Positions 5,836 to 25,124 of a stretch of DNA of 64,000 nt are shown in pieces. The notes beneath the pieces are model-generated. The model had not been told where the DNA came from and made no database searches. It worked only from the letters and a program-made list of their open reading frames with translations. Every line of letters starts with the position of its first letter. The first letter of the stretch is position 1. This DNA comes from Candidatus Aenigmatarchaeota archaeon (GTDB lineage: Archaea; Aenigmatarchaeota; Aenigmatarchaeia; CG10238-14), in NCBI GenBank assembly GCA_018920365.1, contig JAHLMM010000001.1, positions 274,165 through 338,164 on the forward strand. Direction: 5' to 3'. Both the position numbers and the translations under genes were made by a program.

Positions 5836-7105
5836 GGATTTTGACATAAATATTGATCACATAAGCAAGACAGAAGGTCATGCTGATTTGGAGATAAGAG
5901 TAAGGGAAGGTGTTGTTGAAGACGTTAAATTGAAAATAAGCGAGAACAAGAGATTTTATACACAAGCAATAAGAAACAAAGTTTTCAATGGAGTACCACA
6001 ACTAGTTTCTAGAATATGCGGAACTTGCAGCATAGCACATTTGACTTGCAGCACAGAAGCTGTTGAAAAAGCTTTGAAAATTCAACCATCAGAACAGACA
6101 ATGCTTTTGAGAAAGCTGACAATGTATGGAATGATGATAAGAGATCATGCTATGCATTTGTATTTTTTTGTCATGCCAGACATTTTAAATAAAGATTCTG
6201 TTTTGGAGTTTGATGCTAACGAAAGAAAATGGGTTGAAGACGCCTTTGCTGTTAAAGGAGCTGGCAACAATCTGTCAAAACTAATTGCTGGAAGGGCTGT
6301 ACATGCCACTTATGAACAAATAGGATATTTTTCAAGTATACCAAAAAAAGACGACATAAAAAAAATGATTGAAGAATTAAAATCAGTCAGGCAAAAAACA
6401 ATAGATTTAGTTGATTTTCTTTTCAATTGCAATTTCAATTTTGAAAGAAAGACAAATTTTGTCGCATTGTGCACAAATGATTTTAGCTTTTTGGAAGGAA
6501 AAATAAAAAGCGCTGATGGAAATGTAATTGAAGAAGAAGATTATTGGGATTATTTGAATAGAGTTGTTATACCTTACTCACAAGCAACAGGTTTTACTTT
6601 TCAAGGCAAAGAATATATGGTCGGCGCTTCTGCAAGACTAGCTTTAAACAAGGATGCTTTGCACAAGGAAACAAAAAAAGACCTTTCAAAATACATTAAC
6701 ATATTCCCATCTTACAATGTTTATCATAATAATTTGGCTCAGGCTATTGAAATATTGCATTCAATTGATCATTCTATTGAAATATTGGAAACAGCAGAAT
6801 TCAAAGATGAACCAAGGCCAGAAATAAAAATGAAAGCTGGAAAAGGCATAGGTGTTGTAGAAGCACCAAGGGGAACGCTATATCACATGATTGATTTGGA
6901 TGATAATGGAAAAATAAGATATGGTAATTTTGTGATACCAACAGCGCAAAACCAGATAAAAATGGAGAACGACATAAGAGAGCTAGTACCAAAGATAATT
7001 GATAAAAACAAGCATGAAATACAACATGAAATTGAAAAGTTGATACGGGCATATGACCCTTGTATGAGTTGTGCCAGCCATTTCTTAAAAATAAAATGGA
7101 AATAG
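5816..7105 (+). CDS. [NiFe] hydrogenase large subunit
   Basis: N-terminal 'RICGTCSIAH' (RxCGxCxxxH) and C-terminal 'DPCMSCASH' (DPCxxCxxH) Ni-binding motifs. Confidence 0.85.
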   Translation: MVLKMHKDFDINIDHISKTEGHADLEIRVREGVVEDVKLKISENKRFYTQAIRNKVFNGVPQLVSRICGTCSIAHLTCSTEAVEKALKIQPSEQTMLLRKLTMYGMMIRDHAMHLYFFVMPDILNKDSVLEFDANERKWVEDAFAVKGAGNNLSKLIAGRAVHATYEQIGYFSSIPKKDDIKKMIEELKSVRQKTIDLVDFLFNCNFNFERKTNFVALCTNDFSFLEGKIKSADGNVIEEEDYWDYLNRVVIPYSQATGFTFQGKEYMVGASARLALNKDALHKETKKDLSKYINIFPSYNVYHNNLAQAIEILHSIDHSIEILETAEFKDEPRPEIKMKAGKGIGVVEAPRGTLYHMIDLDDNGKIRYGNFVIPTAQNQIKMENDIRELVPKIIDKNKHEIQHEIEKLIRAYDPCMSCASHFLKIKWK

Positions 7106-9668: not shown

Positions 9669-11198
9669 CTAATTATATTTTACTTTCATTATTCTGTCTA
9701 GCCTAAAAGTTTTCAAATTTTTTGAATCATAACATAAGAGACCTTTGTATCTCTTTCCCATATAAACCATTTCGCCGACTTTGACGGGTTTTACAACTCT
9801 TTCTATGACTTGATCATTCTTTTTCAAATAAATTATTTTTATTTGCTTGTCATTTTTTATTGCATTTTCTATCATCAATATTATATCTTCATCCTTCTCA
9901 TTACCATAATTCATCCTTTTCAGTCTTGACACAAAATTGACAATCTTCCAGTCAACCATTACATCTTCCTTTCTTATAGGTTTCTTAAGAACAATTCCAT
10001 TTAAGCTTGTACATCTGCTTAATGCAACATATATTTGTCCATGGGCAAATGCACCGCTGCCAATATCTATTATCACTTTATCAAAAGTTTTTCCTTGACT
10101 TTTGTGTATTGTTATTGCCCACGCAGGTTTTATAGGATATTGAATAAAAGATCCAACAACTCTTGATTCTATTGATTGAGTTGAATCATCAAAAAATATG
10201 TCATATATGTTCCAAGTGTATGGTGTTATTTGAACTATTTTTTTATCTAAAAGCTCAATGCTTATTACATCATTGCCATCTTCGTTTCTTTCTATCTCAA
10301 CTATTTTTCCGATGCTGCCATTAATCCATCTTCCCAAATTGTCATTGTTTATGAGCATGACTTGAGACCCAATTTTTACTGCTAGTTCTTTTTCCAGAGG
10401 TAAATAACTTTCAGGAAAACTTCCTTTAACAATACCTTGATAATAATAAAAATTGCCTTTAATCTTGTCCATGTTTTCTTTGTTTATTTTGTCTGCAATC
10501 TCTTTTGTTGATGTCAAAATTATATAGAAATCATTGCTTTCAGGCTGAAAGTTAGGCAAATATCTCTTATTTATTTCTTTTAGCTGCTCATTTGTCAACG
10601 AATTATTTCTTACAGCATTCAGTATTTCTATGAATTTTTGATCTTTTTGTCTGTATATTTTTTCCAGTTCAACAAATTCAAATTCTAAATTTTCAAAGGC
10701 TTTTGCATCAAAAAAATAATGTGATTTGTAAAAACCCTTGAATATATTTTTTTCAAAATTTTTCACAACAGGCGGTAGTTGATATAAATCACCGAACAAT
10801 ATCATTTGTACTCCACCAAAAGGTTTATTTTTGTCTTTACCATTAATACGCATAAATTTGTCTATGCAATCGAGCAAATCAGCCCTGACCATTGATATTT
10901 CGTCTATCACTATTGCATCCAAATTTCTGTATATTTTAGAGTCTCTTGCTTTTTTCACTTTGCTTACTGTTATGTCAGGCCTAAATTTAAAGAATGAATG
11001 TATTGTGACTCCTTTGACATTTACAGCAGCAACACCGGTTGGCGCTAATACAACTATATTCTTTTTTGTGTTGTTTCTAAAATAGTCTAACAATGTTGAC
11101 TTGCCAGTGCCTGCCCTGCCCGTTATTAAAACATGAATGTCAGAATTTTCCATCAATTCGAACGCTTGCTTGAATTTTTCATTTATTTCGATCTTCAT
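9669..11198 (-). CDS. SF1 DNA helicase, Pif1/RecD-like
   Basis: Walker A 'GRAGTGKST' and DExx-like 'VIDEISMV'. The C-terminal barrel region resembles Pif1/RecD2. Confidence 0.6.
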   Translation of the reverse strand: MKIEINEKFKQAFELMENSDIHVLITGRAGTGKSTLLDYFRNNTKKNIVVLAPTGVAAVNVKGVTIHSFFKFRPDITVSKVKKARDSKIYRNLDAIVIDEISMVRADLLDCIDKFMRINGKDKNKPFGGVQMILFGDLYQLPPVVKNFEKNIFKGFYKSHYFFDAKAFENLEFEFVELEKIYRQKDQKFIEILNAVRNNSLTNEQLKEINKRYLPNFQPESNDFYIILTSTKEIADKINKENMDKIKGNFYYYQGIVKGSFPESYLPLEKELAVKIGSQVMLINNDNLGRWINGSIGKIVEIERNEDGNDVISIELLDKKIVQITPYTWNIYDIFFDDSTQSIESRVVGSFIQYPIKPAWAITIHKSQGKTFDKVIIDIGSGAFAHGQIYVALSRCTSLNGIVLKKPIRKEDVMVDWKIVNFVSRLKRMNYGNEKDEDIILMIENAIKNDKQIKIIYLKKNDQVIERVVKPVKVGEMVYMGKRYKGLLCYDSKNLKTFRLDRIMKVKYN

Positions 11199-11661: not shown

Positions 11662-12539
11662 ATGAAAAACCCCTCTGTCATGTTGTCAAACGGATTTATT
11701 CTAACAGCGTTTTTGACACTTGAATCATATTCTCGCTTTTCAAATACTGTTAAAGAATCTCGAGTTTTGATGTGATTCAATTTTATTTTCTCTGTCTTTA
11801 AATTAAGATTTTTGACAGCAAAATCTATAACTTCTTCATTTTCTTCAGGATCAATCGAACATGTGGAATATACTATAACACCACCTTCATTCAAACATTT
11901 ATATGCCGATTCCAAAAGCTGTTTTTGCAATCTACTTAGTTGATTGACCTTTCCCTGATTCCATGAACTGAAAACATTTGGATTGGAAATGCATGTTCCA
12001 GAAGAGCTGCAAGGAGCATCTAAAAGAATTTTATCAAAACTTACTTGCATGTTATGAATCCACCTACCATCCAAATTTGTTACAATTGCGTTTGCAACAC
12101 CACATTTTTGCAAATTGAATCTAAGAGCTGTTAATCTTTTCATATTAATGTCATTTGCCACTATCAAACCTTTGTTGTTCATTAAAGCCGCCATTTGGGT
12201 TGTTTTTGATCCTGGCGAGGCTGTCATATCTAACACCAATTCATTTTCTTTAGGATCCAAAACAATAGGCGGAATCATGCTTGCAGAATCCTGTATGTAA
12301 TAATACCCCAAAAAGTATTCTATGGTGTTTGTTATGTTTTCATTTGAAACAAAAAAACCATGGTCGCACCAAGGGATTTTTTCTATTTCAAAAAAGTTCA
12401 ACCTTTCAATCAATTCTTTTTTCGAAATTTTCAGCGTATTAACCCTAAAAGATTTTTTTAATTTCACAATTGTATTAAATTTATCAAAGCTTTCAGGATA
12501 AATTGTCCTTATTTTCGCCTCAAGCAATTTAGGAATCAT
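11640..12539 (-). CDS. RNA cytosine-C5 methyltransferase, NOL1/NOP2/Sun family
   Basis: SAM motif 'DMTASPGSKTT', catalytic 'DAPCSSSGT' and 'VYSTCS'. Confidence 0.8.
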   Translation of the reverse strand: MIPKLLEAKIRTIYPESFDKFNTIVKLKKSFRVNTLKISKKELIERLNFFEIEKIPWCDHGFFVSNENITNTIEYFLGYYYIQDSASMIPPIVLDPKENELVLDMTASPGSKTTQMAALMNNKGLIVANDINMKRLTALRFNLQKCGVANAIVTNLDGRWIHNMQVSFDKILLDAPCSSSGTCISNPNVFSSWNQGKVNQLSRLQKQLLESAYKCLNEGGVIVYSTCSIDPEENEEVIDFAVKNLNLKTEKIKLNHIKTRDSLTVFEKREYDSSVKNAVRINPFDNMTEGFFICKLRKY

Positions 12540-12566
12540 AAAGAATGAATTTATTTCACAAATATT

Positions 12567-13817
12567 TTAACTCTTCTTTTTTCTTTTAACCTTTTTCCCA
12601 ATTTTTAACCTCTTCATACTTTTTATGAATGATTTCAAATTTGGTTTTTTAGATACAGGCTTTATGTCATCCATCTTTTTCTGCTCATTCTCATATCCAA
12701 ACCATGGGTATATTTTGTCTCTTGTTGCCGCAAACTTTTCATCAAAAGGTTTTGGTGCATCTATTTTATCTTCTCTGAGCCAAACCGTTCTCTGCGGGAA
12801 TGGAATTCCTATACCCTCTTTATACAACCTTCTGTATATTTTGGTTATTGCTTCCTGATGAGCAGGCCATCTCTTGTCTATGTGATCAACCCAAAACATT
12901 ACTCTAAAGTTCAAAGAGCTTTCTCCCATTGCAAGGAATAAAACTCTTGCCTCCTTTTCCCTATCTATTATTTTCATTGTGTTTATTTCTTCCAAAACAA
13001 TTCTTTTCACATATTCAGGATCAGTGCCATATTCAACAGAAAAATCTATGTTTACCCTTACAGTTGGATCAGGCTGTAATAAATTTTGAATCTTAGCATT
13101 TGCCACTATGCTGTTTGGTATTATTATCATTTCATTGTCAAACGTTTTTATTCTAACAGCTCTGAGGGTTATAGAATAAATTTCACCCATTTCACCAGTG
13201 TCAAGTTTTACAATGTCACCAACTCTTATTGTCTTGTCCATTATCAATGCTATTCCTGCAAATATATTAGACAACGTCTGCTGTAATGCTAATGCAACTG
13301 CTATTCCTGCAATACCGAGGCTTGCAAGTATTGGGGATATTTCAACACCCCATATGCTTAGGGTGTAAAGCAACGCTATTACAATGAATGCAGCCTTCAA
13401 AGAACTGTGCGCAATGTTTAACAGAGTATCATCAACTTTTGTTTCGGTTTTTTCAGATGTCCTTCTACTAATTCTTATAAAAGTGACATCTATGAATGCA
13501 TATATTATGTATGCTATTGATAATGAAAACAATGTAAATATGACATGATTTATTGTTTCCAATGCGCTTTGTGTTAATGAAATCTCTCTTACTGCCAGGA
13601 AGACACTTGAAATAAATATCAGAACATTTATCGGAGTGTTCCATCTTTTTATAATTATGTCATCAACTTCTGTTTTTGTCTTTTCAGAAAATTTTCTGGC
13701 AAAAAACCTTATTGTTACAGCAAATGTTTTGAATATCAAGAGTGATACAAAGAAAATTACAAACGCTCTGATTATTTCGTTGCCTATTAATGGATCAAAA
13801 ATTTGATTCAGCATCAA
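12567..13817 (-). CDS. Mechanosensitive ion channel (MscS family)
   Basis: N-terminal TM helices followed by an MscS beta-domain ('IRVGDIVKLDTGEMGEIYSITLRAVRIKTFDNEMIIIPNS'). Confidence 0.75.
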   Translation of the reverse strand: MMLNQIFDPLIGNEIIRAFVIFFVSLLIFKTFAVTIRFFARKFSEKTKTEVDDIIIKRWNTPINVLIFISSVFLAVREISLTQSALETINHVIFTLFSLSIAYIIYAFIDVTFIRISRRTSEKTETKVDDTLLNIAHSSLKAAFIVIALLYTLSIWGVEISPILASLGIAGIAVALALQQTLSNIFAGIALIMDKTIRVGDIVKLDTGEMGEIYSITLRAVRIKTFDNEMIIIPNSIVANAKIQNLLQPDPTVRVNIDFSVEYGTDPEYVKRIVLEEINTMKIIDREKEARVLFLAMGESSLNFRVMFWVDHIDKRWPAHQEAITKIYRRLYKEGIGIPFPQRTVWLREDKIDAPKPFDEKFAATRDKIYPWFGYENEQKKMDDIKPVSKKPNLKSFIKSMKRLKIGKKVKRKKKS

Positions 13818-13860: not shown

Positions 13861-14138
13861 GCAAGAGGCGCGCTCTTGGTGGGAATAGCTTCAACAGCTA
13901 GAGTTTTCTGGTTCTTGTTCTCCACCTTGCTAACTCGCGAGCACAGGAGTGTATGCCTTATGGCTGCTCGGTTCCCCGCCTGACCAGGTTCAACATACAC
14001 ACTGTCCCGGGAGACAAGGCTTCTCAGTTCAAGAACCAGGTCTAGCCGCCAAAGCTAAGCCGCCCTTGAACTTCGATCCCGCCGTATACCGGGTTTGCGG
14101 CAACAGGGTACCGGTAGCACCCCGATCTAGCCTCTTGC
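13861..14138 (-). ncRNA. ffs: Signal recognition particle RNA (7S/SRP RNA)
   Basis: A roughly 55% GC island in an AT-rich genome. The minus strand contains the domain IV helix 8 motif 'GGUCAGGCGGGGAACCGAGCAGCCA' (compare bacterial 'GGUCAGGUCCGGAAGGAAGCAGCCA') with a GGAA tetraloop. A terminal helix (gcaagaggc...gcctcttgc) bounds a roughly 278-nt RNA. Confidence 0.8.
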
Positions 14139-14581: not shown

Positions 14582-15318
14582 TTATGAAAAAATACAAACT
14601 GCTGCTTGGTAGAAGGAAATATGTTGTTGATTTATCTAGAGAAAAGTTTAACACACAATTTGGGGAAATAGATTTGAAAAAACTGAAGAAAGCAAAGGTT
14701 GGCGAAAAGATAAAAACTCATAAAGGAGAGGAGTTTACAATAGCAGAGCCATCTTTGATTGATTTGCTTGAAAAAAAAGCCAAGAGGTTACCACAGATAA
14801 TAACACCTCAGGATGCTGCTATGATTTTGGCATATACAGGTTTGGCCAACGATAGCATCATAATTGATGCCGGTGCCGGATCTGGTTTTTTGAGCATATT
14901 TTTAGCTTATTATTGCTGTAAGGGCAAGGTAATATCTTATGAAGTAAATCAAAAATCCGCAAAGATAGCTGAAGAAAACGCAAGATTGATTGGATTGAAA
15001 AATTTGACGATAAAAAACAAGGATATTTTACAAGGAATAGACGAAAGAAATGTTGATGCTGTTACGCTTGATATGAAAGATGCTGAAGAAAATGTGGAAA
15101 ATGCTTACAATGCTTTGAAAAAAGGCGGTTGGTTGATTGTATACTCACCGTATATAGAGCAGGTGAAGCATGTTATTGAAAAAATCGAAAAGATGTTTTT
15201 TACCGAAGTCAGAACAGTGGAATGCATAAAAAGAGAATGGCAAGTAAGCGATTATACAAGACCCAAAACGCTTGGATTGATGCATACAGGATGGCTTACT
15301 TTTGCTAGGAAATTCTGA
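14578..15318 (+). CDS. trmI: tRNA (adenine-N1)-methyltransferase TrmI-like
   Basis: SAM motif 'IIDAGAGSGFLS' and the GCD14/TrmI-like 'GGWLIVYSPYIEQV'. Confidence 0.6.
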   Translation: MIMKKYKLLLGRRKYVVDLSREKFNTQFGEIDLKKLKKAKVGEKIKTHKGEEFTIAEPSLIDLLEKKAKRLPQIITPQDAAMILAYTGLANDSIIIDAGAGSGFLSIFLAYYCCKGKVISYEVNQKSAKIAEENARLIGLKNLTIKNKDILQGIDERNVDAVTLDMKDAEENVENAYNALKKGGWLIVYSPYIEQVKHVIEKIEKMFFTEVRTVECIKREWQVSDYTRPKTLGLMHTGWLTFARKF

Positions 15319-16852: not shown

Positions 16853-18100
16853 TTATTTTAAGGAGTTCGAGTTTTTTATCGATTTTTTTAATACAAAGAA
16901 TAGAGCTATTGATAGAATTTCAATGCAGACTAATGAAGCTATCATTAAAGTTATGGAAATTTCATACAAATATCCAGAAAAAACGCTGCCAAAGAACAAG
17001 GCTAGACCATATATTACATTAAAAATACCATACCCTGTTCCACGTTTTGATATCGATGTTAAATCAGCAATTGCTGCTTTCATTATTGTTTCGTGTGAAC
17101 CCATCACAACTCCCCAAAAAAATACTGCAATCAATATTAATGCTATATTATAAGAGAATATAAATGGAAGAAGTATAGCAGTAAGTATAGGCACAAAAAA
17201 CAAAATCAATAGTCCTGCGTTTTCATTTTTGTGTTTTATTTTCATATTGTCGTAAATTTTTCCTAATATTATCCCGAATATTGCATCAACACTCATAGCA
17301 ATAGCATATAAAAAAGGTATTTGTGCGTCGGATGCGATGCCATTTATCTTCAAGTGATATCCAACGATTGCAAAGTTAATAAAGCCTACAGTGGTAACAA
17401 ATGCAAAAAACGAGTATACCCAGAAAACTTTTGATATTTTTGAAGATTCTATTTTGTTCTTTGTTTTTTCAAGGTCACTTGGTGTTTTAAACTTGAAAAA
17501 AGTGATTAATAAAATAATTATCAAAATCACAAATGGAAACCAAAGCAGGCTGTAACCACGTTGATAATCTGCCGCTGTTTTTTGTGCGACTCCTAAATAT
17601 ATAAAAAAAAGCGTGAATATCAAAGGTCCGACTGTTGCACCAATCTGATCTATAAACTCAGAGATACCAAAACCAAAACCAGTACCAACCTGTTTGGTTG
17701 CATGAGAAACTAGTGTGTCTCTTGCCGGACTTCTTAATCCTTTACCAATTCTTTCAAGTACAATAAATACTGCTGCAAGTTGCCAATAATTAGATAAAGC
17801 TAGTAATGGTACTGTAATAAGCAAACTATATCCTAAAATTGTGAAAAACCAATGCGCTTTTGCTTTGTCGGAAAAATAACCTGAAAATAAACGGATTGCG
17901 TAACCCAGTAACTCTCCTATACCTACAACTAACCCTATAATTACCGCATTTGCACCGAGTGTATTTAGAAAAGGCCCATTAACACTTCTTGCTCCTTCAT
18001 AAATAATGTCTCCAAGTAAACTTATTATTCCGAAAAGCAATATGAGGATAATTGCCTTTTTCTTGTTTTCATTGAATTTCCCAAAGTGTTTTTTAAACAT
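16853..18100 (-). CDS. MFS transporter
   Basis: About 12 predicted TM segments with MFS-like loop motifs ('GKGLRSPARD'). Confidence 0.65.
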   Translation of the reverse strand: MFKKHFGKFNENKKKAIILILLFGIISLLGDIIYEGARSVNGPFLNTLGANAVIIGLVVGIGELLGYAIRLFSGYFSDKAKAHWFFTILGYSLLITVPLLALSNYWQLAAVFIVLERIGKGLRSPARDTLVSHATKQVGTGFGFGISEFIDQIGATVGPLIFTLFFIYLGVAQKTAADYQRGYSLLWFPFVILIIILLITFFKFKTPSDLEKTKNKIESSKISKVFWVYSFFAFVTTVGFINFAIVGYHLKINGIASDAQIPFLYAIAMSVDAIFGIILGKIYDNMKIKHKNENAGLLILFFVPILTAILLPFIFSYNIALILIAVFFWGVVMGSHETIMKAAIADLTSISKRGTGYGIFNVIYGLALFFGSVFSGYLYEISITLMIASLVCIEILSIALFFVLKKSIKNSNSLK

Positions 18101-18301
18101 AAATCCAATTAGGATTGGTTTGTATTTAAATTTGTTGAACTTGTGGCATTAACAGAAGTTTTCGCTTGCGAAAATTTGGGGAAAATTCGCAGAATTTTCC
18201 CTCTTAATCGCTGTTCAACGACCTAAAAAGGCAAATTCTTGATGAATTTAAGTATGAGTTTAGACGCCAATTTTAAATAAAATGAATAATATAAAAATAT
18301 T

Positions 18302-18475
18302 ATGGGAATGGGTAGCTTTCTTGACAAAATAACCAACACTGCTAAAAAATTTACGGAAAAAATACAAACAGATGTAAAAAGAAGAGAGGAAATAAAAATA
18401 TTGAAAGAGAAATATCTTTCTAGACTTTCTCAAAAAGAATTGATTACTTTATATAAAATGTATTTTAGTGATTAA
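18302..18475 (+). CDS. Small hypothetical protein (57 aa) abutting the downstream gene
   Basis: ATG at 18302 and TAA at 18473-75, immediately followed by the ATG at 18476. It is not in the ORF track because it is under 60 aa. Confidence 0.3.
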   Translation: MGMGSFLDKITNTAKKFTEKIQTDVKRREEIKILKEKYLSRLSQKELITLYKMYFSD

Positions 18476-19195
18476 ATGGTTAAAAGAAAAGATCCATTTG
18501 ATATGGATTTTGATATAGAACCAATAGATCTTTCTTTTCAAAAAAGAAAAGACCCAAATAAAATGTCTAAAGTAGAATTAATACGGGAGTTAGCAAATAA
18601 TATTTCAGAAAAAGATTTATATAAATCTCTTATCAGATTAGGAAAACAAAATATGGCTGAAGAATTTCAAAGTGAAATAGAATTAATTGAGAGAAAATAT
18701 GAGAAACAATTTTCTAATATAGATGGAAAAGAAACTGATATTGGTGATAAAATATTAGACTCTATTACAGATGAAATTATAAAAAATATGAAAGAAATAT
18801 ATAGACTTTCTTTTCATCCAAAGGATGAGATAGATTTTCATCATCAGTTAGAACCTTTTTTAAAGGGAATGATGTCAAATATGGAAAATTCTTTATCCAA
18901 GTTTGGATGGAAGACAAAAGTAGAGAGGGAACATGTACTGCCTTCAAATGAAAGAATAGATTTGTTAATTTCGATAGGGAATCTAAAAATAGGCATAGAA
19001 GTTAAATATGATTTAGATGAAACATCACAATTACAGAGGCTTTTAGGACAAATAGATAGATATTTACCTTATTTAGATATAATAATGATAGTTTCATATA
19101 GACCTTTAAATCAAAAAACATTATTATCTATTAAAAATAAAGAAATTGAGAAAAATAAAAAAATAAGGATATTGACACCCCATAAAATAATATAG
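18476..19195 (+). CDS. Hypothetical protein with PD-(D/E)xK-like motif
   Basis: 'ERIDLLISIGNLKIGIEVKYD' fits a D...ExK nuclease-core pattern. No other recognisable family. Confidence 0.4.
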   Translation: MVKRKDPFDMDFDIEPIDLSFQKRKDPNKMSKVELIRELANNISEKDLYKSLIRLGKQNMAEEFQSEIELIERKYEKQFSNIDGKETDIGDKILDSITDEIIKNMKEIYRLSFHPKDEIDFHHQLEPFLKGMMSNMENSLSKFGWKTKVEREHVLPSNERIDLLISIGNLKIGIEVKYDLDETSQLQRLLGQIDRYLPYLDIIMIVSYRPLNQKTLLSIKNKEIEKNKKIRILTPHKII

Positions 19196-19355
19196 GCGTC
19201 TAAACTCAGATGGATAGGAATTATCTTAAAAAGCTGTTTGGTTTTATAACATCAAGAAAAACTAATCAAGAATGGACACAAAATGCATTGAATTATGGAT
19301 ATGATTTGGAAAAAAGTAAAAAATATAGACAGATAAATATTTATCAAAAATTTTA

Positions 19356-19545
19356 AGGCGCCCGAGTGATTGAAATGAACGTATGCAGATAAACGAAGTT
19401 GCCGAAGGCAATTTTGGTGAGGTTCTGCAAGAGCCGAAACGTTTATCTGCTGTTATACGCCCCGAGCCGATAGGCGAGAGTGCAATGTGGTCGAGGAGCG
19501 AAGCGACGAAGAAGTTGAAAAAGTGCCCCTTAATATTTTTTAAAA
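19356..19545. ncRNA. Candidate structured RNA of unknown class (GC-rich island)
   Basis: About 55% GC against a roughly 30% background, lying between convergent gene ends. There is a perfect 11-bp helix (19385-19395 with 19440-19450) extended by a 5-bp helix (19380-84 with 19455-59). An internal hairpin 19398-19412 reads cUUCGg on the minus strand. Confidence 0.35.
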
Positions 19546-20537
19546 ACTTCATCAAAGTATTTAATTAGATCATTAATTTGTTCTACTTCTGTGATTACAA
19601 TTTCCGTCGGTAAATGGTTTGTATAGTGTCCAATAGACCTAACATCTCTAAATGGTATATTGAAATTTTCTGGCTTAATATCATTAATCTTGGCTTTTGA
19701 ATAATAAACTAAGCTATTTTTCCTAACTACGCACGAGAATATCATGTTATTATTCTTGAAGAAACCTATATAATGCTTCATTGGAGATATTTTTATATTC
19801 TTTGATTTTAGATGATTGAGGAATAAATTGAATATAGAAGATATTTTTTCAGGTTTATTTTTAAGGTGATATTCTAAAGTATATTCTTCTAATTTTAATC
19901 TTTCTTTTGAGGTAAGTATTTCATCTTCTGTTATCTCGCTGTCGCTGAATAATATTAATTCTTCTTTATTTTTAGTGAATAAAGAAACTTCAATTTTTCT
20001 AATTTTAACATTAATTGCTTTTTCAATTTGGGATAACCCTATACTTAATTCGGGTGAAATCCTATCAATAACCAATAGAATCTGTAAATCTTCCATTGAA
20101 TTATCTAATAGTTCATATACCTCTTTCCCAGTATCTTTTTGTAATTTATCAAAAATCTTTTTATTTTTCTTGATTTCGTTATATAGGAAATTCCTAACAG
20201 CGTCTAATTCTTCTACTGAAGCACTTTGGATAAATGAGATAAAGTTCCCTAATTGTGGCAATATATGTTTATCAATACCGTGTTTTTCTAATTCTATTTC
20301 AGTTATATAGAGAGATGGGGTCGTTGGGTTGTCCCAAACAAGAAGAAAACCATCACTAATTGAATGTTTAAAATTCTTAAAACTTTTACTTTTAACCTGT
20401 TTTTCTATTTTAATAAAAAGCGATTTATTAGAAACAATATTCTCATAATTTTTTGAAAATAAATCCGTTAATTCTTCTTCTTTTGAATATTCTTGTTTTG
20501 AATATTTTTCGTTGTTTTTTAATATCGTGTGCTTCAT
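19530..20537 (-). CDS. Hypothetical protein (335 aa), N-terminal PD-(D/E)xK-like motif
   Basis: 'LVWDNPTT...YITEIELEKHG' matches a D-x(n)-ExK pattern. The C-terminus carries an Rx6H-type 'RDVRSIGH'. No confident family assignment. Confidence 0.45.
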   Translation of the reverse strand: MKHTILKNNEKYSKQEYSKEEELTDLFSKNYENIVSNKSLFIKIEKQVKSKSFKNFKHSISDGFLLVWDNPTTPSLYITEIELEKHGIDKHILPQLGNFISFIQSASVEELDAVRNFLYNEIKKNKKIFDKLQKDTGKEVYELLDNSMEDLQILLVIDRISPELSIGLSQIEKAINVKIRKIEVSLFTKNKEELILFSDSEITEDEILTSKERLKLEEYTLEYHLKNKPEKISSIFNLFLNHLKSKNIKISPMKHYIGFFKNNNMIFSCVVRKNSLVYYSKAKINDIKPENFNIPFRDVRSIGHYTNHLPTEIVITEVEQINDLIKYFDEVFKKY

Positions 20538-20719
20538 ATTACAATACTAAATTATCAAGATATATAAATTTTATTAAAAGGAGCACTTTTCAATTGCACA
20601 TAAAAACTATTAAACGAACTTCTTTTAACCTTTAAACTAGCTTCAAATAACGAATAAATTATTTCGTCTTATTCAAAACTTGTACTATAACGAATATTCA
20701 CATAAAAATCAAAAAATTA

Positions 20720-21476
20720 AATTGTTTTTGTGAATAGCAAAAATTACACCATTGTCACCAAACTAATAAAAGAAATAAAACTAAGAAAATATTCGTATAA
20801 AACTGGGAAAAGATATATAGATATTGTCGTTAAATTTCCGAAATCAGGTAAAACATCAAAAGAATTTTTGTTATAAAGTTCAAAAAAGCAGATTCTACTA
20901 TGAGAATGTTCTAAATCAAAAATTTTATAAGAAAATACCATATTTAAAACCAAGATTAAAACTGCCAAAAGTTCTAAGAAAAGAAGACGTAACAAAAATG
21001 ATAGATGTTGTGAAAAATACAAAACATGAGCTATATTATCAGCGCTTTATTATACAGGTTTGCGTTTGAACGTTTGAGCAAAGAAACTTGAGGTGGGATG
21101 ATATAGATTTTCAGAGACATATTTCATATAAAGAAGGCTAAAGGTGACAAAGAATTGTTTTTTAGATGAGAAACTAAAACAATCGCTGAGGAATCTGGGA
21201 ACAAAACAATATGGGCTTGTATTTATCTAATCCAGAGGTGGAAAATATAGCAAAAGAACAATACAAAAAATATTGAAAGATGCTGCGAGAAAAGCAAACA
21301 TTTCAAAGAAAATAATACCAAATTCATTAAGACATTCTTTTGCTACTCATCTTTTAGAAGCAGGAGTTGATATAAGATATATACAGCAGCTTTTAGGACA
21401 TAAAAACCTTCAAACAACTCAAATCTACACTCATGTAGCAAACAAAGACATAAAAAGGCTTGCGAATGCTATTTAA
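20720..21476 (+). pseudogene. Tyrosine recombinase/integrase (XerC/D-like), degraded by multiple frameshifts and stops
   Basis: Integrase-like peptides appear in three different frames: 'ITPLSPN', 'ADSTMRMF', 'LRWDDIDFQ', 'YGLVF'. The ending '[37 protein letters not shown]' carries the R-H-R-Y catalytic region. ORF-track pieces 20824..21069 and 21273..21476 are fragments of it. Confidence 0.65.
21426..21475. repeat. Direct repeat DR1 (integrase 3' end), att-like
   Basis: The 38-nt 'tacactcatgtagcaaacaaagacataaaaaggcttgc' plus about 12 similar nt. It is repeated at 23667..23716. Confidence 0.6.
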
Positions 21477-21517
21477 GTATAAATATTTAAAGTACAATAT
21501 ATACCTTTGGTGACCTT

Positions 21518-21682
21518 ATGAGTATAATTTATTCAATACCTGTAAAACCTATTAAAAATAATGGCGCATTTAAATGCACAATTCCAAAAGAAATAACAGA
21601 TAAAATTGGAATTAAAAAAGATAATAAGATTGTTTGGATTTTATATGATGATGGTAAAATAGAGGTTAAAATAGAGAAGTGA
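21518..21682 (+). CDS. AbrB/SpoVT/MazE-type swapped-hairpin DNA-binding protein (54 aa)
   Basis: 'AFKCTIPKEITDKIGIKKDNKIVWILYDDGKIEVK' is the classic AbrB-fold motif. It lies directly upstream of the methyltransferase and is under 60 aa, so it is absent from the ORF track. Confidence 0.5.
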   Translation: MSIIYSIPVKPIKNNGAFKCTIPKEITDKIGIKKDNKIVWILYDDGKIEVKIEK

Positions 21683-21688
21683 TTAATT

Positions 21689-22504
21689 ATGAAAACATTT
21701 TCAAAGAAAAATGAAATCAACATTAGTAAAATTACTGAAAAGCATATGAAAAATAATAATGTAAAAAAGTGGGAACCGGAGAATTTTGAACTTCAAACAA
21801 CAACAATATGGAGCTTTCCTAAAAGAGGCAATTGGGCAACTCATCGTGGAGACTATAGAGGCAATTGGGCACCAGAAATACCAAGGAACTTGATTTTAAG
21901 ATACTCAAAAAAAGGTGATATAGTTTTAGATCCTTTTGTAGGTTCTGGGACTACTATTATTGAGTGTAAATTGCTTGGAAGAAGAGGTATAGGTATTGAT
22001 ATAAATCCTGATGCGATAAAACTAGCTAAAAAAAGAATTGAATTTTCGAAATTGTTTGATGAACCTCAAGAATTGAGGGTTGGCGATGCAAGAGATTTAA
22101 GTTTTATAAAAAGCAACTCTATTGATTTAATTTGTGCGCATCCACCATATGCAGACGCTATACAATATACAGATGGAATAGAAGGCGATTTATCGTTTAT
22201 TAAAAATGTTGATGAATTTGTTAACGAGATAGGTAAAGTTGCTAAAGAATGTTACAGAGTATTAAAGCCTGGTAAATATTGTGGTGTCTTAATAGGAGAT
22301 ATAAGAAGAAAAAAACGCGTCATCCCTGTTGGATTCAAAGTTATGAACGAGTTTTTAAATGTTGGTTTTAATTTGAAAGAAATTATAATTAAACTTCAAC
22401 ATGAATGCAAAACTACGCCGTTGTGGGAGAAAAAATCTATAGAATATAATTTTTTACTTCTCGCGCATGAATATTTATTTGTTTTTGAAAAGTTAGAAAA
22501 ATGA
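21689..22504 (+). CDS. N6-adenine/N4-cytosine-type methyltransferase (DNA MTase, possibly RNA MTase-like architecture)
   Basis: 'HRGDYRGNWAPEIPRNLILRYSKKGDIVLDPFVGSGTT' (motif X-I) is followed by 'ICAHPPYAD' (motif IV). Confidence 0.6.
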   Translation: MKTFSKKNEINISKITEKHMKNNNVKKWEPENFELQTTTIWSFPKRGNWATHRGDYRGNWAPEIPRNLILRYSKKGDIVLDPFVGSGTTIIECKLLGRRGIGIDINPDAIKLAKKRIEFSKLFDEPQELRVGDARDLSFIKSNSIDLICAHPPYADAIQYTDGIEGDLSFIKNVDEFVNEIGKVAKECYRVLKPGKYCGVLIGDIRRKKRVIPVGFKVMNEFLNVGFNLKEIIIKLQHECKTTPLWEKKSIEYNFLLLAHEYLFVFEKLEK

Positions 22505-22531
22505 TTCGGATCTACATAAATTTCTTTTGAT

Positions 22532-23077
22532 CTACTTAGTAGCATATTTAGTTGGTGGTGGCCAATTGCGAACAGCATTAGTTATAATTTTGTCAATCTC
22601 TTCTTCCCCTGATGCTACCCATCTTATAAACCTCATAAGAAATTCTCTCGGCGGTTCAACTTTTCCCTTTTTACAACCACCAGAACCATAATTGAACTCT
22701 TGCTCTATCATTAAAAGCTGCATATAATACAAATTAACATCTGGGTCATCTAGTTGCATTGGAAATTTTAGTTTTAAGAGTTCATTTGAATATTTTTCTG
22801 GGTCATCACCATCATATACGTTTTCTATAATAGAGAATAATTTCTTTGCATCATCTTCGTTACTCAATCTTTTAAGATACAAATCAAATAATAATCTTAC
22901 GTGCGTTGGTCTAAATTCTTTTCTTTCTGGTATTAGAAGTGAAACAGCAAAATCATGAGGACATATCTTATCAGTTCTTATAGCAAAAATTTTAGTTTTA
23001 TTTTGGCTCGTATAAATTAATTTATGCTCATTTAATTTCATTCCTCTTAATATAGGAAATAAATCTAACATTCTCAT
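22532..23077 (-). CDS. Hypothetical protein, possible small restriction endonuclease partner
   Basis: 181 aa, convergent with the MTase. 'PHD-x9-ERK' could be a PD-(D/E)xK core. The assignment is weak. Confidence 0.3.
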   Translation of the reverse strand: MRMLDLFPILRGMKLNEHKLIYTSQNKTKIFAIRTDKICPHDFAVSLLIPERKEFRPTHVRLLFDLYLKRLSNEDDAKKLFSIIENVYDGDDPEKYSNELLKLKFPMQLDDPDVNLYYMQLLMIEQEFNYGSGGCKKGKVEPPREFLMRFIRWVASGEEEIDKIITNAVRNWPPPTKYATK

Positions 23078-23132
23078 AATTATTATTTCATAAAAAAGAT
23101 TAAATTAATATAACTTTTCATTAAATAATAGT

Positions 23133-23447
23133 ATGCCAGAAAATATTATTTTAGAATGTCCATTTTGTCATAAAAAAACAGTGAACGTTATTTATTATCC
23201 ATCTATTTTACAAGCTTCTACCTCTAGGGCTGCTGGGAGAACAGTGACGAAATACTATAAAACTAAAGAAAAATATGAAGTTTTGTCAGATTGCTCTAAT
23301 TGTGGTAAAAAAATAAAAGAAATACAAAAAGCTTTGGAAGGAGAAAAAAAAGATCCAGATAAGGAAAAGGAAATAATTGAAAGATTAAAAAAACAAGGAT
23401 TGTTTATGGATGAAATAAAACAAAATTATAAGTCTAATAAGAGTTAA
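23133..23447 (+). CDS. Zinc-ribbon protein (CxxC...CxxC) with Lys/Glu-rich tail
   Basis: 'CPFCHKK...CSNCGKK'. Confidence 0.4.
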   Translation: MPENIILECPFCHKKTVNVIYYPSILQASTSRAAGRTVTKYYKTKEKYEVLSDCSNCGKKIKEIQKALEGEKKDPDKEKEIIERLKKQGLFMDEIKQNYKSNKS

Positions 23448-23666
23448 AATTTTCAACGATTTTGATTGTAATTATATATTTTTGAAGAAAATTTAGGTTT
23501 AACATATTATATTAATATTATTTTTTACGAGGTAAAATTTTAAGAAAAATCAAGTCTAGCTCAATATATATTCAACACCTAAGATACGAAAATGTAACTT
23601 ATTCAAGTGATGAATTTGTTGATATAATGGTATTTACTAGCGAAATAAACAAGATGTGTTCAATTA

Positions 23667-23716
23667 TACACTCATGTAGCAAACAAAGACATAAAAAGGC
23701 TTGCAAACGCCATTTA
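23667..23716. repeat. Direct repeat DR2, copy of integrase 3' end
   Basis: 38/38 identity to 21426..21463 and similar flanks. It is an isolated copy about 2.2 kb downstream of the integrase pseudogene. Confidence 0.6.
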
Positions 23717-23792
23717 AAAAATTTTCTAATGAATAGCAACTAAAACTTAAATACCTCAAAATTAGATATTAATCTTATCAGGTGATAAAAAC

Positions 23793-24086
23793 ATGAATCC
23801 ATGGCTGAAAATACTTATAGGTTTGGTTTTGCTTGGATTGCCTCTAGCATTATACGCATATGACATAATGACACCTGGACCAGTGGTTACATTCAATATT
23901 TTAGGTAGAGACATACAACTATCCCCTGTAAGAGCATTTCTAACAGTGCTAGAAGGTACAGTTCCACCATTCTTGGCATTGATCGGCTTGTTCATCGTAT
24001 GGCTAGAACTTGACGAGCTAAGAATAGAAAGGGAATTGAAGCAAGAGGAAGAAGAGGAAGAAAAACCAAAGAAAAAGAAAAAGTAA
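23793..24086 (+). CDS. Small membrane protein with poly-Glu/Lys tail
   Basis: Two TM helices and a C-terminal 'EEEEEEKPKKKKK'. Confidence 0.35.
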   Translation: MNPWLKILIGLVLLGLPLALYAYDIMTPGPVVTFNILGRDIQLSPVRAFLTVLEGTVPPFLALIGLFIVWLELDELRIERELKQEEEEEEKPKKKKK

Positions 24087-24092
24087 GTTGAT

Positions 24093-25124
24093 ATGGGAGT
24101 ACAGATATCTCAACTCTTGCCAAAACAAGAGATAAAAATAGAAGAGCTTGCAGGCAAAAGAATAGCCATAGATGCTTTTAATATAATTTTTCAATTTCTT
24201 TCAATTATTCGACAGAGAGAGACAGGCGAACCTCTTAGAGATAGCAATGGCAGAATAACATCCCATTTGTCTGGTTTGTTTTATAGAAACTTGAGATTTC
24301 TTGAATCTGGATTGAAGCCAATATATGTTTTTGACGGCAAGCCACCTGATTTTAAGAAAAAGACAATAAAAGAAAGAGAGGCTAAAAGAGAAGAGGCTGC
24401 AAAAAAATGGGAACAAGCTATTAAAGAAGGAAGAAAAGAAGATATAATGGTTTATGCACAAGCTTCTTCCAAACTAACAGATGAAATGATCAAGGAAAGC
24501 AAACTGCTTTTGCAATCTTTAGGCATACCTGTCATTCAAGCAGCTTCAGAAGGTGAGGCACAAGCAAGCTTTATGGTTATGAAAGGTGACGCTTTCTCCT
24601 CAGCCAGTCAGGATAGCGACTCGCTGCTTTTCGGTTGTCCACGTCTAGTCAGAAATCTGTCAATATCAGGAAAGAGAAAAATGCCGAGGCAAGAGAAATG
24701 GATTGACGTTAATCCTGAAATGATAGAGTTACATTCAGTCTTGAAAGAATTGAACATAACAAGAGAGCAACTTATATGCATAGGTCTGCTTGTTGGTACT
24801 GATTACAATGATGGCATAAACGGAATAGGACCGAAAAAGGCTTTGGCATTAGTTAAAGAAAAATCAGTCGATCAAATTTTAGCTGAAACAGATTGGAATA
24901 GTGAATATGATATAAATGAAATATTTGATTTTTTTGTCAATCCACACGTGAATAAAGATTATGAAATAAAATTTGGAGAAATTGACAAAGAAGCTGTGAA
25001 GAAAATAATGGTTGATGAGCATGATTTTTCTGAGCAGAGAATAGATAATGCTTTGGATAAAATAATTCAACAAAAGAAAAAAGGATCTCAGTCAAGTTTG
25101 TCAGGCTGGTTTAAGAAATCTTGA
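24093..25124 (+). CDS. fen1: Flap endonuclease 1
   Basis: 'MGVQISQLLP' start, XPG-N and XPG-I motifs, and 'GIGPKKALALVKE' in the H3TH region. Confidence 0.9.
   Translation: MGVQISQLLPKQEIKIEELAGKRIAIDAFNIIFQFLSIIRQRETGEPLRDSNGRITSHLSGLFYRNLRFLESGLKPIYVFDGKPPDFKKKTIKEREAKREEAAKKWEQAIKEGRKEDIMVYAQASSKLTDEMIKESKLLLQSLGIPVIQAASEGEAQASFMVMKGDAFSSASQDSDSLLFGCPRLVRNLSISGKRKMPRQEKWIDVNPEMIELHSVLKELNITREQLICIGLLVGTDYNDGINGIGPKKALALVKEKSVDQILAETDWNSEYDINEIFDFFVNPHVNKDYEIKFGEIDKEAVKKIMVDEHDFSEQRIDNALDKIIQQKKKGSQSSLSGWFKKS

Follow-up and report, generated by a model that had tools for sequence, protein, structure and literature searches.

How does the 3′ end of a recombinase gene come to stand on both sides of a group of genes that encodes no recombinase? 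This question is raised by a 64,000-nucleotide (nt) stretch of a Candidatus Aenigmatarchaeota genome (GCA_018920365.1, contig JAHLMM010000001.1, positions 274,165 to 338,164), referred to here as the window, whose own positions serve as coordinates throughout. In the window, the gene for a XerA-like tyrosine recombinase, the integrase of an integron that lies upstream of it, is followed by a methyltransferase cassette and then by a second copy of the gene's last codons. The cassette is an insertion with exact limits: two related genomes have the empty site, the two gene tails are different alleles, and the same arrangement recurs in other lineages. The bracketed element brings no integrase of its own; the integrase gene is its target, and that gene is rebuilt rather than split.

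Repeated integrase tails and their empty sites

A repeat search of the window returned a two-copy family of direct repeats, the only one of its kind there, whose 58-nt copies are 53/58 identical and lie 2241 nt apart (Table 1). Both copies contain an exact 38-nt core (21426–21463 and 23667–23704), which occurs exactly twice in the 64 kb even when 3 mismatches are allowed, and not at all in 100 dinucleotide-preserving shuffles. Copy 1 consists of the final 19 codons and the stop codon of the recombinase reading frame, and the TAA stop is the exact right end of both copies. Copy 2 is preceded by an in-frame stop, and no further recombinase homology is found upstream of it. A preliminary description of this DNA had proposed that direct repeats derived from the integrase 3′ end bracket a methyltransferase cassette, and the repeat search, together with the identity of copy 1 as the recombinase tail, confirms this. 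The two positions that it gave for a shared 38-mer are those of the core, and its views that the second copy is an orphan and that the integrase is a pseudogene also hold. However, the repeat is longer than the "about 50 bp" first reported, and the 17-residue peptide read from the second copy belongs to the +1 frame, the copy's own frame giving a tail of 18 residues.

Relatives provide the empty site. Window positions 14093–35124 are identical to a contig of an Aenigmatarchaeota metagenome-assembled genome (MAG; GCA_038999715.1), and two related Aenigmatarchaeota genomes, L005 (GCA_039001075.1) and L008, have an intact recombinase gene in a locus without the cassette. The gene order in L005 is a major facilitator superfamily transporter, two cassette genes, the intact 261-amino-acid (aa) recombinase, 75 nt, a 97-aa membrane protein, FEN1, RNase HII, an Mrr-like protein, TBP, and MCM, with flanks that are 99% (left) and 96% (right) identical to those of the window; L008 has the same layout at 88–92% identity. 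The 80 nt that follow the L005 stop codon, comprising the 75-nt spacer and the first 5 nt of the 97-aa gene, match the flank after copy 2 at 80/80 positions and the sequence after copy 1 at 29/80, and at the empty site the integrase tail directly adjoins AAAATTTTCTAATG. Because the flank that stands after copy 2 in the window directly follows the intact integrase in L005 and L008, 21477–23717 is an insertion relative to both, and the additional 2241 nt equal one tail plus the cassette. The change may be a gain in the window or a loss in L008; L005, for its part, cannot be a simple deletion product of the window arrangement unless the crossover fell within the last 6 nt.

The two copies differ at 5 nt in a manner expected of coding sequence. 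To the right of the core, copy 1 reads GCG AAT GCT ATT TAA and copy 2 reads GCA AAC GCC ATT TAA, with 3 synonymous changes; to its left, ATC (I) in copy 1 faces TTA (L) in copy 2. The probability that random substitutions would keep the tail peptide and stop so well is 0.008 for this pair. Moreover, native tails in working genes match both right-arm variants, with GCGAATGCT in L005 and GCAAACGCC in L008, and the right arm of copy 2, GCAAACGCCATTTAA, is that of the native L008 integrase tail. As the tails differ mostly synonymously, their source is two functional alleles rather than a duplication in situ; therefore, one of them, whether carried in by the inserted DNA or encountered by it, evolved in another integrase gene that was functional. 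These comparisons bear out the attL/attR-like geometry of the preliminary description, in which the shared segment lies in the integrase gene's own 3′ end, since the empty sites in L005 and L008 are syntenic. The repeat is not a generic one present at many loci: outside the two copies in the window, the metagenome collection yielded no exact match to a 29-nt sub-core.

Recurrence was assessed in 83 loci, namely 80 loci with relatives of the recombinase from species-representative genomes together with L005, L006, and the window, each of which was searched with its own last 11 codons plus stop. Orphan tails were found in three of them (the window, L072, and L086), all on the integrase strand and 1–3.8 kb downstream of the gene, and shuffled tails gave no match in the same scan. 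In L072, from the Nanoarchaeia, an orphan NKDIKNLARLI-stop lies 1 kb downstream of NKDIKNLAKLI-stop; the 7 nt differences of this pair comprise 4 synonymous changes, a TAA-to-TGA change, and two that fall in a single codon (K to R; P = 3e-4). The cargo in L072, a helix-turn-helix–nucleotidyltransferase gene and its partner, matches the PADLOC candidate system PDC-M05 (PDC-M05A/B), and only 19 nt separate the cargo stop codon from the orphan tail. In L086, 42 nt of the tail recur at 97.6% identity 3.8 kb downstream, and the cargo includes a DUF6036 nucleotidyltransferase, a winged-helix protein, and other genes; since the L086 recombinase is only 41% identical, its tail sequence is unrelated. 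In each of the three cases the shared segment ends, on its right, at the stop codon, and every one of the orphan tails still encodes the peptide and the stop codon.

The cassette between the tails encodes no integrase, 21477–23659 being devoid of recombinase homology, and a covariance-model search of 21477–23717 (E ≤ 10, filters off) gave no attC match. Its noncoding right end (23448–23659) has no significant similarity to the integrase unit and likewise no attC by the covariance model. The four genes of the "AbrB-MTase-REase-like-Zn-ribbon" module (MTase, methyltransferase; REase, restriction endonuclease) named in the preliminary description are present, although the "REase-like" label of the 181-aa protein comes only from its neighborhood. 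The same four-gene module recurs in L168, also from the Aenigmatarchaeota, at 80% DNA identity over window positions 21471–23427; the 54-aa gene holds the same position there, and a 101-aa gene stands in the zinc-ribbon position, where the DNA is 73% identical. In L168 the module sits between the ELP3 and PIF1 genes, with no integrase nearby, and its presence at this identity in a different place indicates that it moves as a unit. The module ends are also arranged differently: in L168 (~6950–7000, reverse strand) the decamer GTTGTGTTGA stands directly left of the module promoter TTAAAGTTATAAAT, whereas in the window the counterparts, GATGTGTTCA (23655–23664), which resembles GTTGTGTTGA, and TTTAAGTATAAAT (21471–21485), stand at opposite cassette ends, both of which overlap the repeat limits by 4–5 nt. 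This comparison hints that the module may circularize and be opened at different points. A short attC at 23613–23666 had been suspected since AATTTGTTGA... and TGTGTTCAA resemble the ends of attC-like site 1, but the covariance model gives it no support, and an Rfam scan of 17500–24500 at E ≤ 1 returned nothing.

Table 1. Positions of the integron, the recombinase pseudogene, the inserted cassette, and the repeated tails in the window
Feature	Position	Strand	Evidence or remark
attC-like site 1, distal array end	18132..18223	+	Covariance model R1, 68 bits, E=3e-12
attC-like site 2	19372..19462	+	Covariance model R1, 67.7 bits, E=3e-12
attI-like region, upstream of integrase	20592..20729	+	92% identical to L005 and L008
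XerA-like integron-type tyrosine recombinase pseudogene, insertion target	20730..21476	+	Three frames; frameshifts, stops
Repeat copy 1, attL-like integrase tail	21419..21476	+	Encodes 18-residue tail; 56/58 identical to L005 integrase tail
Inserted cassette	21477..23659	.	Absent from L005 and L008
AbrB/MazE-fold protein, 54 aa, candidate cassette controller	21518..21682	+	PF04014 E=7e-4, below Pfam cut-off
Type II N4/N6 DNA methyltransferase	21689..22504	+	PF01555 E=1e-32; PADLOC MTase_II E=3e-92
181-aa conserved protein, candidate restriction partner	22532..23077	-	Assigned from neighborhood only
Zinc-ribbon protein, 104 aa	23133..23447	+	Two CxxC pairs in translation; Pfam matches only weak
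Noncoding right end of cassette	23448..23659	.	No open reading frame; ends in ...GATGTGTTCA
Repeat copy 2, attR-like orphan integrase tail	23660..23717	+	18-residue tail in own frame; right arm GCAAACGCCATTTAA
Conserved spacer, integrase stop to 97-aa gene	23718..23792	.	75 nt in window and L005

The recombinase and the integron on its 5′ side

Aligned with its intact orthologues in L005 and L008, the window recombinase gene has deletions of 35, 1, 2, and 5 nt, a 4-nt insertion, and in-frame stops. Its final 67 codons match Pfam PF00589 (E = 1e-20), and the reconstructed protein is 77% identical to P0001, one of the ~7,800 members of the family. The closest solved structures are those of XerA (5hxy and 4a8e); the protein scores 209 bits against the NCBIfam model NF040815 (XerA_Arch), just below the cut-off of 220, and 174 bits against the integron integrase model TIGR02249, for which the cut-off is 265. 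The IntI-specific domain is absent: in the comparison with VchIntIA, query residues 167–185 face chain residues 178–241, so that ~45 residues are missing. With the XerA structures and NF040815 as its best matches, the recombinase does not belong to the SSV, pTN3, or pT26-2 integrase groups. Family members that are 62–75% identical to P0001 occur across phyla and are tied to variable arrays, and the family recombinase looks mobile rather than housekeeping, as the chromosome-dimer resolvase XerA of the host would be. When metagenomes were scanned with a protein pattern, generic XerC/D genes dominated the matches and a single family member was recovered; a scan of viral contigs found no member of the family.

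Two other loci contain additional recombinase sequences. In L080, from another Aenigmatarchaeota genome, the decayed C-terminal half of a family integrase (9988–10433) is 89% identical in DNA to the window pseudogene and lies in an unrelated context; it was considered as a second occupied site, but this was ruled out, as it is merely a decayed integrase fragment elsewhere. In L087, a second tyrosine recombinase gene, 31% identical, lies 6 kb downstream of the family integrase (12042–12818), and another attC-like site lies beyond it (14788–14879); the L087 locus may combine two integrons of different types.

The recombinase is the integrase of an integron of canonical geometry that extends upstream of it (18132–20729). 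In the window, conservation stops at ATAAA/AACTATTAAACG (20604/20605, the slash marking the junction), and 53 of 78 loci have, ~131 nt before the start of the integrase gene, a junction of the form xTAAC/AACTATTAAGCGA-N9-TCGCTTAATAG; 33 of the 53 also have an inverted partner of the attI-like motif. Conservation ends exactly at the slash, the sequence to its left resembles the outer box of attC, and this junction is the attI–cassette junction. Structured repeats of ~90 nt, 2 in the window and 62 in the 82 other loci, lie upstream of the gene and always on its strand. In this attC-like family the outer stem is conserved (AAC...GTT), the inner stem covaries (GCGATTAAGAG/CTCTTAATCGC and variants), and two hairpins occupy the center; 15 of 25 pairs show compensatory changes, and pairing holds in 94% of cells, compared with 78% in shuffles and 30–49% when the partners are slid. 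No second recombinase was found near the arrays. An integrase at the distal array end, with the attC strand read from the 3-nt bulge, was ruled out: the attI junction in 53 loci is the ordinary divergent geometry. In 28 of 78 loci the contig ends less than 400 nt upstream of the recombinase gene, so that assemblies break at the attI/cassette junction, a sign of arrays that vary within populations. The layout on the 5′ side is found in dozens of DPANN, Thermoplasmatota, and Methanosarcinales-labeled MAGs.

Further observations concern the state and the history of this integron. The cassette-junction triplet at 20604 in the window is AAA, compared with AAC in almost all other loci, and the window, L005, and L008 have an altered inverted-arm motif in attI; with the integrase also dead, these features suggest that the integron of this lineage is decaying. 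The second integron cassette contains 57-aa and 239-aa PD-(D/E)XK genes bracketed by 21-nt inverted repeats at 18255–18275 and 19188–19208 (TGAGTTTAGACGCC..., 19/21 complementary), and a GAGACGCC motif that is similar to these repeats follows a 145-aa gene in L005. Just after attC-like site 1, at 18229–18256, TAAAAAGGC...ATTTAAGTATGAG resembles the 3′ half of the integrase tail and the tail/cassette junction ATTTAAGTATAAAT. A third, decayed tail at this position was considered and set aside as a weak lead, as attC sequence makes up part of the match and the remainder may reflect a similar promoter. The attC-like site at 18136–18215 retains 91% nt identity among genomes labeled Aenigmatarchaeota, Woesearchaeota, and Bilamarchaeaceae (vs L078 and L025), and the aligned integrases that are 62–75% identical to P0001 come from MAGs labeled Aenigmatarchaeota, Thermoplasmatales, Pacearchaeota, Woesearchaeota, Nanoarchaeota, and Methermicoccus. 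Such identities suggest that the whole platform may have spread recently between phyla.

How a cassette may enter the integrase tail

The known integron sites are not used here, as the bracketed cassette is without an attC and stands 3′ of the gene. The tail would be an additional point of entry of another kind, and it is either a separate site for the recombinase or a portable patch of homology for host recombination. The mechanism that we favor, with a probability of about 0.55, is that a small circular cassette without a recombinase enters the resident integrase gene through a single reciprocal crossover in that gene's tail. The final ~19 codons of a same-family integrase would be present on the cassette itself, and the shared tail, with 38 identical nt here, would be the attachment sequence; the circular intermediate would read …GATGTGTTCA-tail-GTATAAAT…. 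The product would have the order integrase body, tail, cassette, tail, old flank, with the integrase frame rebuilt to its stop codon and the native tail displaced and left as an orphan beside the unchanged flank. A crossover within the 38-nt core would make the right arm of copy 2 the native one (L008-like), and a crossover within the final ATTTAA would make all of copy 1 native (L005-like). The reaction would be performed in trans by an active integrase of the XerA-like integron family; as the copy in the window is dead, the cassette is presumably trapped there, and nothing but a homologous deletion across the two repeats would now remove it. For the separate parts of this proposal, we consider the geometry, a crossover with a tail-bearing cassette, to be likely, and catalysis of the crossover by the integrase to be a tentative suggestion.

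Such a crossover accounts for the empty sites, the limit at the stop codon, the allelic tails, and the recurrence, and it is in keeping with a target gene that is a recombinase with signatures of activity close to it, namely the attI-like site and the attC arrays that dozens of genomes have there. A number of points weigh against it. The pattern is found in only 3 of the 83 loci, and the integrase of the window is a pseudogene, so no recent action by it is possible. No dif-like 11-6-11 dyad is shared by the tails of the window, L005, L008, L072, and L086 (criterion, at least 8/11), the cassette has no attI-arm, L-box, or attC motif, and the L168 module sits elsewhere without any tail. Either copy, 1 or 2, may be the native one, and L005, the closest relative by its flanks, has the copy-1 type. 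No circle junction is readable in the Logan contigs (k = 31), which break at the 38-nt repeat by construction. Finally, the left limit of the shared segment varies, lying 19 codons from the stop in the window and 11–15 and 13 codons from it in the other two cases, a variation at least as compatible with recombination guided by homology as with a crossover at a fixed position.

Homologous recombination by the host on the 38-nt identity would yield the same product, and the same geometry could therefore have been joined without the integrase, the tail being portable homology. The perfect identity of the 38 nt, the variable left limit, a tail that has neither a dyad-symmetric core nor an integron-type motif, and the dead local integrase all fit this explanation. 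It leaves unexplained, however, why cassettes in three lineages, with unrelated tail sequences, should carry exactly this gene's 3′ end and why the target is always a recombinase gene, and the homology is short; we consider it unlikely.

The orphan could also be what remains of a second integrase, if a tandem arrangement of array-int1 and cassette-attI-int2 had undergone a deletion that removed attI2 and all of int2 save its last 58 nt. A tail that diverged under coding constraint and lies flush with the conserved flank would then be expected, integrases of this family normally carry their cassettes on the 5′ side, and integrase fragments do occur elsewhere, as in L080. Nevertheless, the DNA before copy 2 and before the L086 orphan shows no further trace of an integrase or attI. 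In the window, the local alignment of 23448–23666 to the integrase unit scores 29, within the range of shuffles (mean 27.7, maximum 54), and the corresponding alignment upstream of the L086 orphan is short and low scoring, a comparison made with no shuffle control. In L072 there are just the 19 nt between the cargo stop codon and the tail, and none of the 83 loci has a tandem pair of full-length integrases. Moreover, three independent deletions would be needed, each stopping 36–58 nt before the stop codon. Thus, a deleted second integrase is an improbable source of the orphan tails.

A third explanation is that a restriction–modification (RM) unit, linear or circular, inserted with a long target duplication: it would have joined at the microhomologies TCAA and TTTAA, which lie 58 nt apart, with the target between them duplicated. 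Furuta, Abe and Kobayashi (2010; PMC2853133) described bacterial RM units with long target duplications, and no archaeal case survived their screen. The window resembles that class in having an RM-type unit of less than 20 kb, of which M is confirmed and R comes from the neighborhood only, direct repeats of more than 30 bp, and an empty site with a single copy, in formal agreement with their screen. The adjacency of GTTGTGTTGA and TTAAAGTTATAAAT in L168, with GATGTGTTCA and TTTAAGTATAAAT at opposite cassette ends in the window and overlapping the repeat limits by 4–5 nt, is also compatible with such an event. In contrast to the expectation of identical copies, however, the copies here are allelic, those of both the window and L072 differing with a strong synonymous bias that extends in L072 to a change from one stop codon to another. 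Duplication further predicts no preference for one gene, a prediction that fails, and each of the three shared segments has the stop codon as its right limit. The cargos of L072 and L086 are not RM systems and show the same pattern, and an integrase gene as the target is excluded from the RM target-duplication class by definition. Duplication of the target is accordingly very improbable. A chance or generic repeat unlinked to the cassette is a negligible explanation, given two copies only in the window, one copy at the empty sites, and no match in 100 shuffles.

Relation to known systems and meaning

The crossover of a tail-bearing cassette with the integrase gene would be reminiscent of several known systems. 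Islands of the lambda/P4 type insert into the 3′ end of a tRNA or protein gene, and their attP carries a replacement 3′ end. In both cases direct repeats bracket the insert, the shared segment reaches the target gene's end, insertion rebuilds that gene while its native end is orphaned, and the empty site has one copy. Unlike those islands, the insert here lacks an integrase gene and has the recombinase gene itself as its target, and no excised form was seen. IMEX elements and pdif modules exploit Xer recombinases; they are recombinase-less, bounded by copies of the Xer site, and dependent on an enzyme that acts in trans. The window cassette is likewise a recombinase-less module bounded by copies of one site, but its tails have no 11-6-11 dif-like dyad, and its repeats are direct and part of the recombinase coding sequence.

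Within the archaea, "suicidal" integrases of the SSV type have an att site toward the N-terminal part of the gene, and integration splits the gene into int(N) and int(C) at the element ends (PMC8371274, Badel et al.). The attachment sequence inside an archaeal integrase reading frame is common to both; however, the site here is the last 12–19 codons, the order is gene, tail, cassette, tail, the frame is restored through copy 1, and the protein is XerA-like. Ghaly et al. (2022; PMC9668308) described archaeal integrons and listed Aenigmatarchaeota and Nanoarchaeota with attC arrays and 0 IntI. The locus shares with integrons an attI-like site and structured attC-like arrays beside the recombinase, in dozens of genomes from DPANN and other archaea, and a cargo of small defense and toxin-type modules. 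In contrast, the bracketed cassette lies 3′ of the gene, lacks attC, and is bounded by repeats of coding sequence, and the recombinase lacks the IntI-specific domain.

Defense cassettes in the same position in two distant relatives point to an undescribed docking site for mobile genes. It is conceivable, though on balance doubtful, that the last 12–19 codons of the gene for this XerA-like integron integrase without an IntI domain are a dedicated second attachment site apart from attI/attC, at which the integrase would insert and excise in trans recombinase-less defense cassettes that bring an integrase tail of their own, among them an RM unit and a nucleotidyltransferase pair, always rebuilding its own gene, and that the "integrase-less" attC arrays of DPANN archaea would be run by the XerA-like enzyme. 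If the tail is a true docking site, then archaeal integrons would have two entry points, the second of which would use coding sequence as an attachment site without killing the gene, the opposite of what "suicidal" integrases do. This would also explain the movement of defense modules without attC between DPANN and other archaea. The genomic context further makes a XerA-like enzyme without the IntI domain, found beside attI and attC, a candidate recombinase for arrays that have been reported as integrase-less, and with it the origin of integron integrases from Xer proteins becomes testable.

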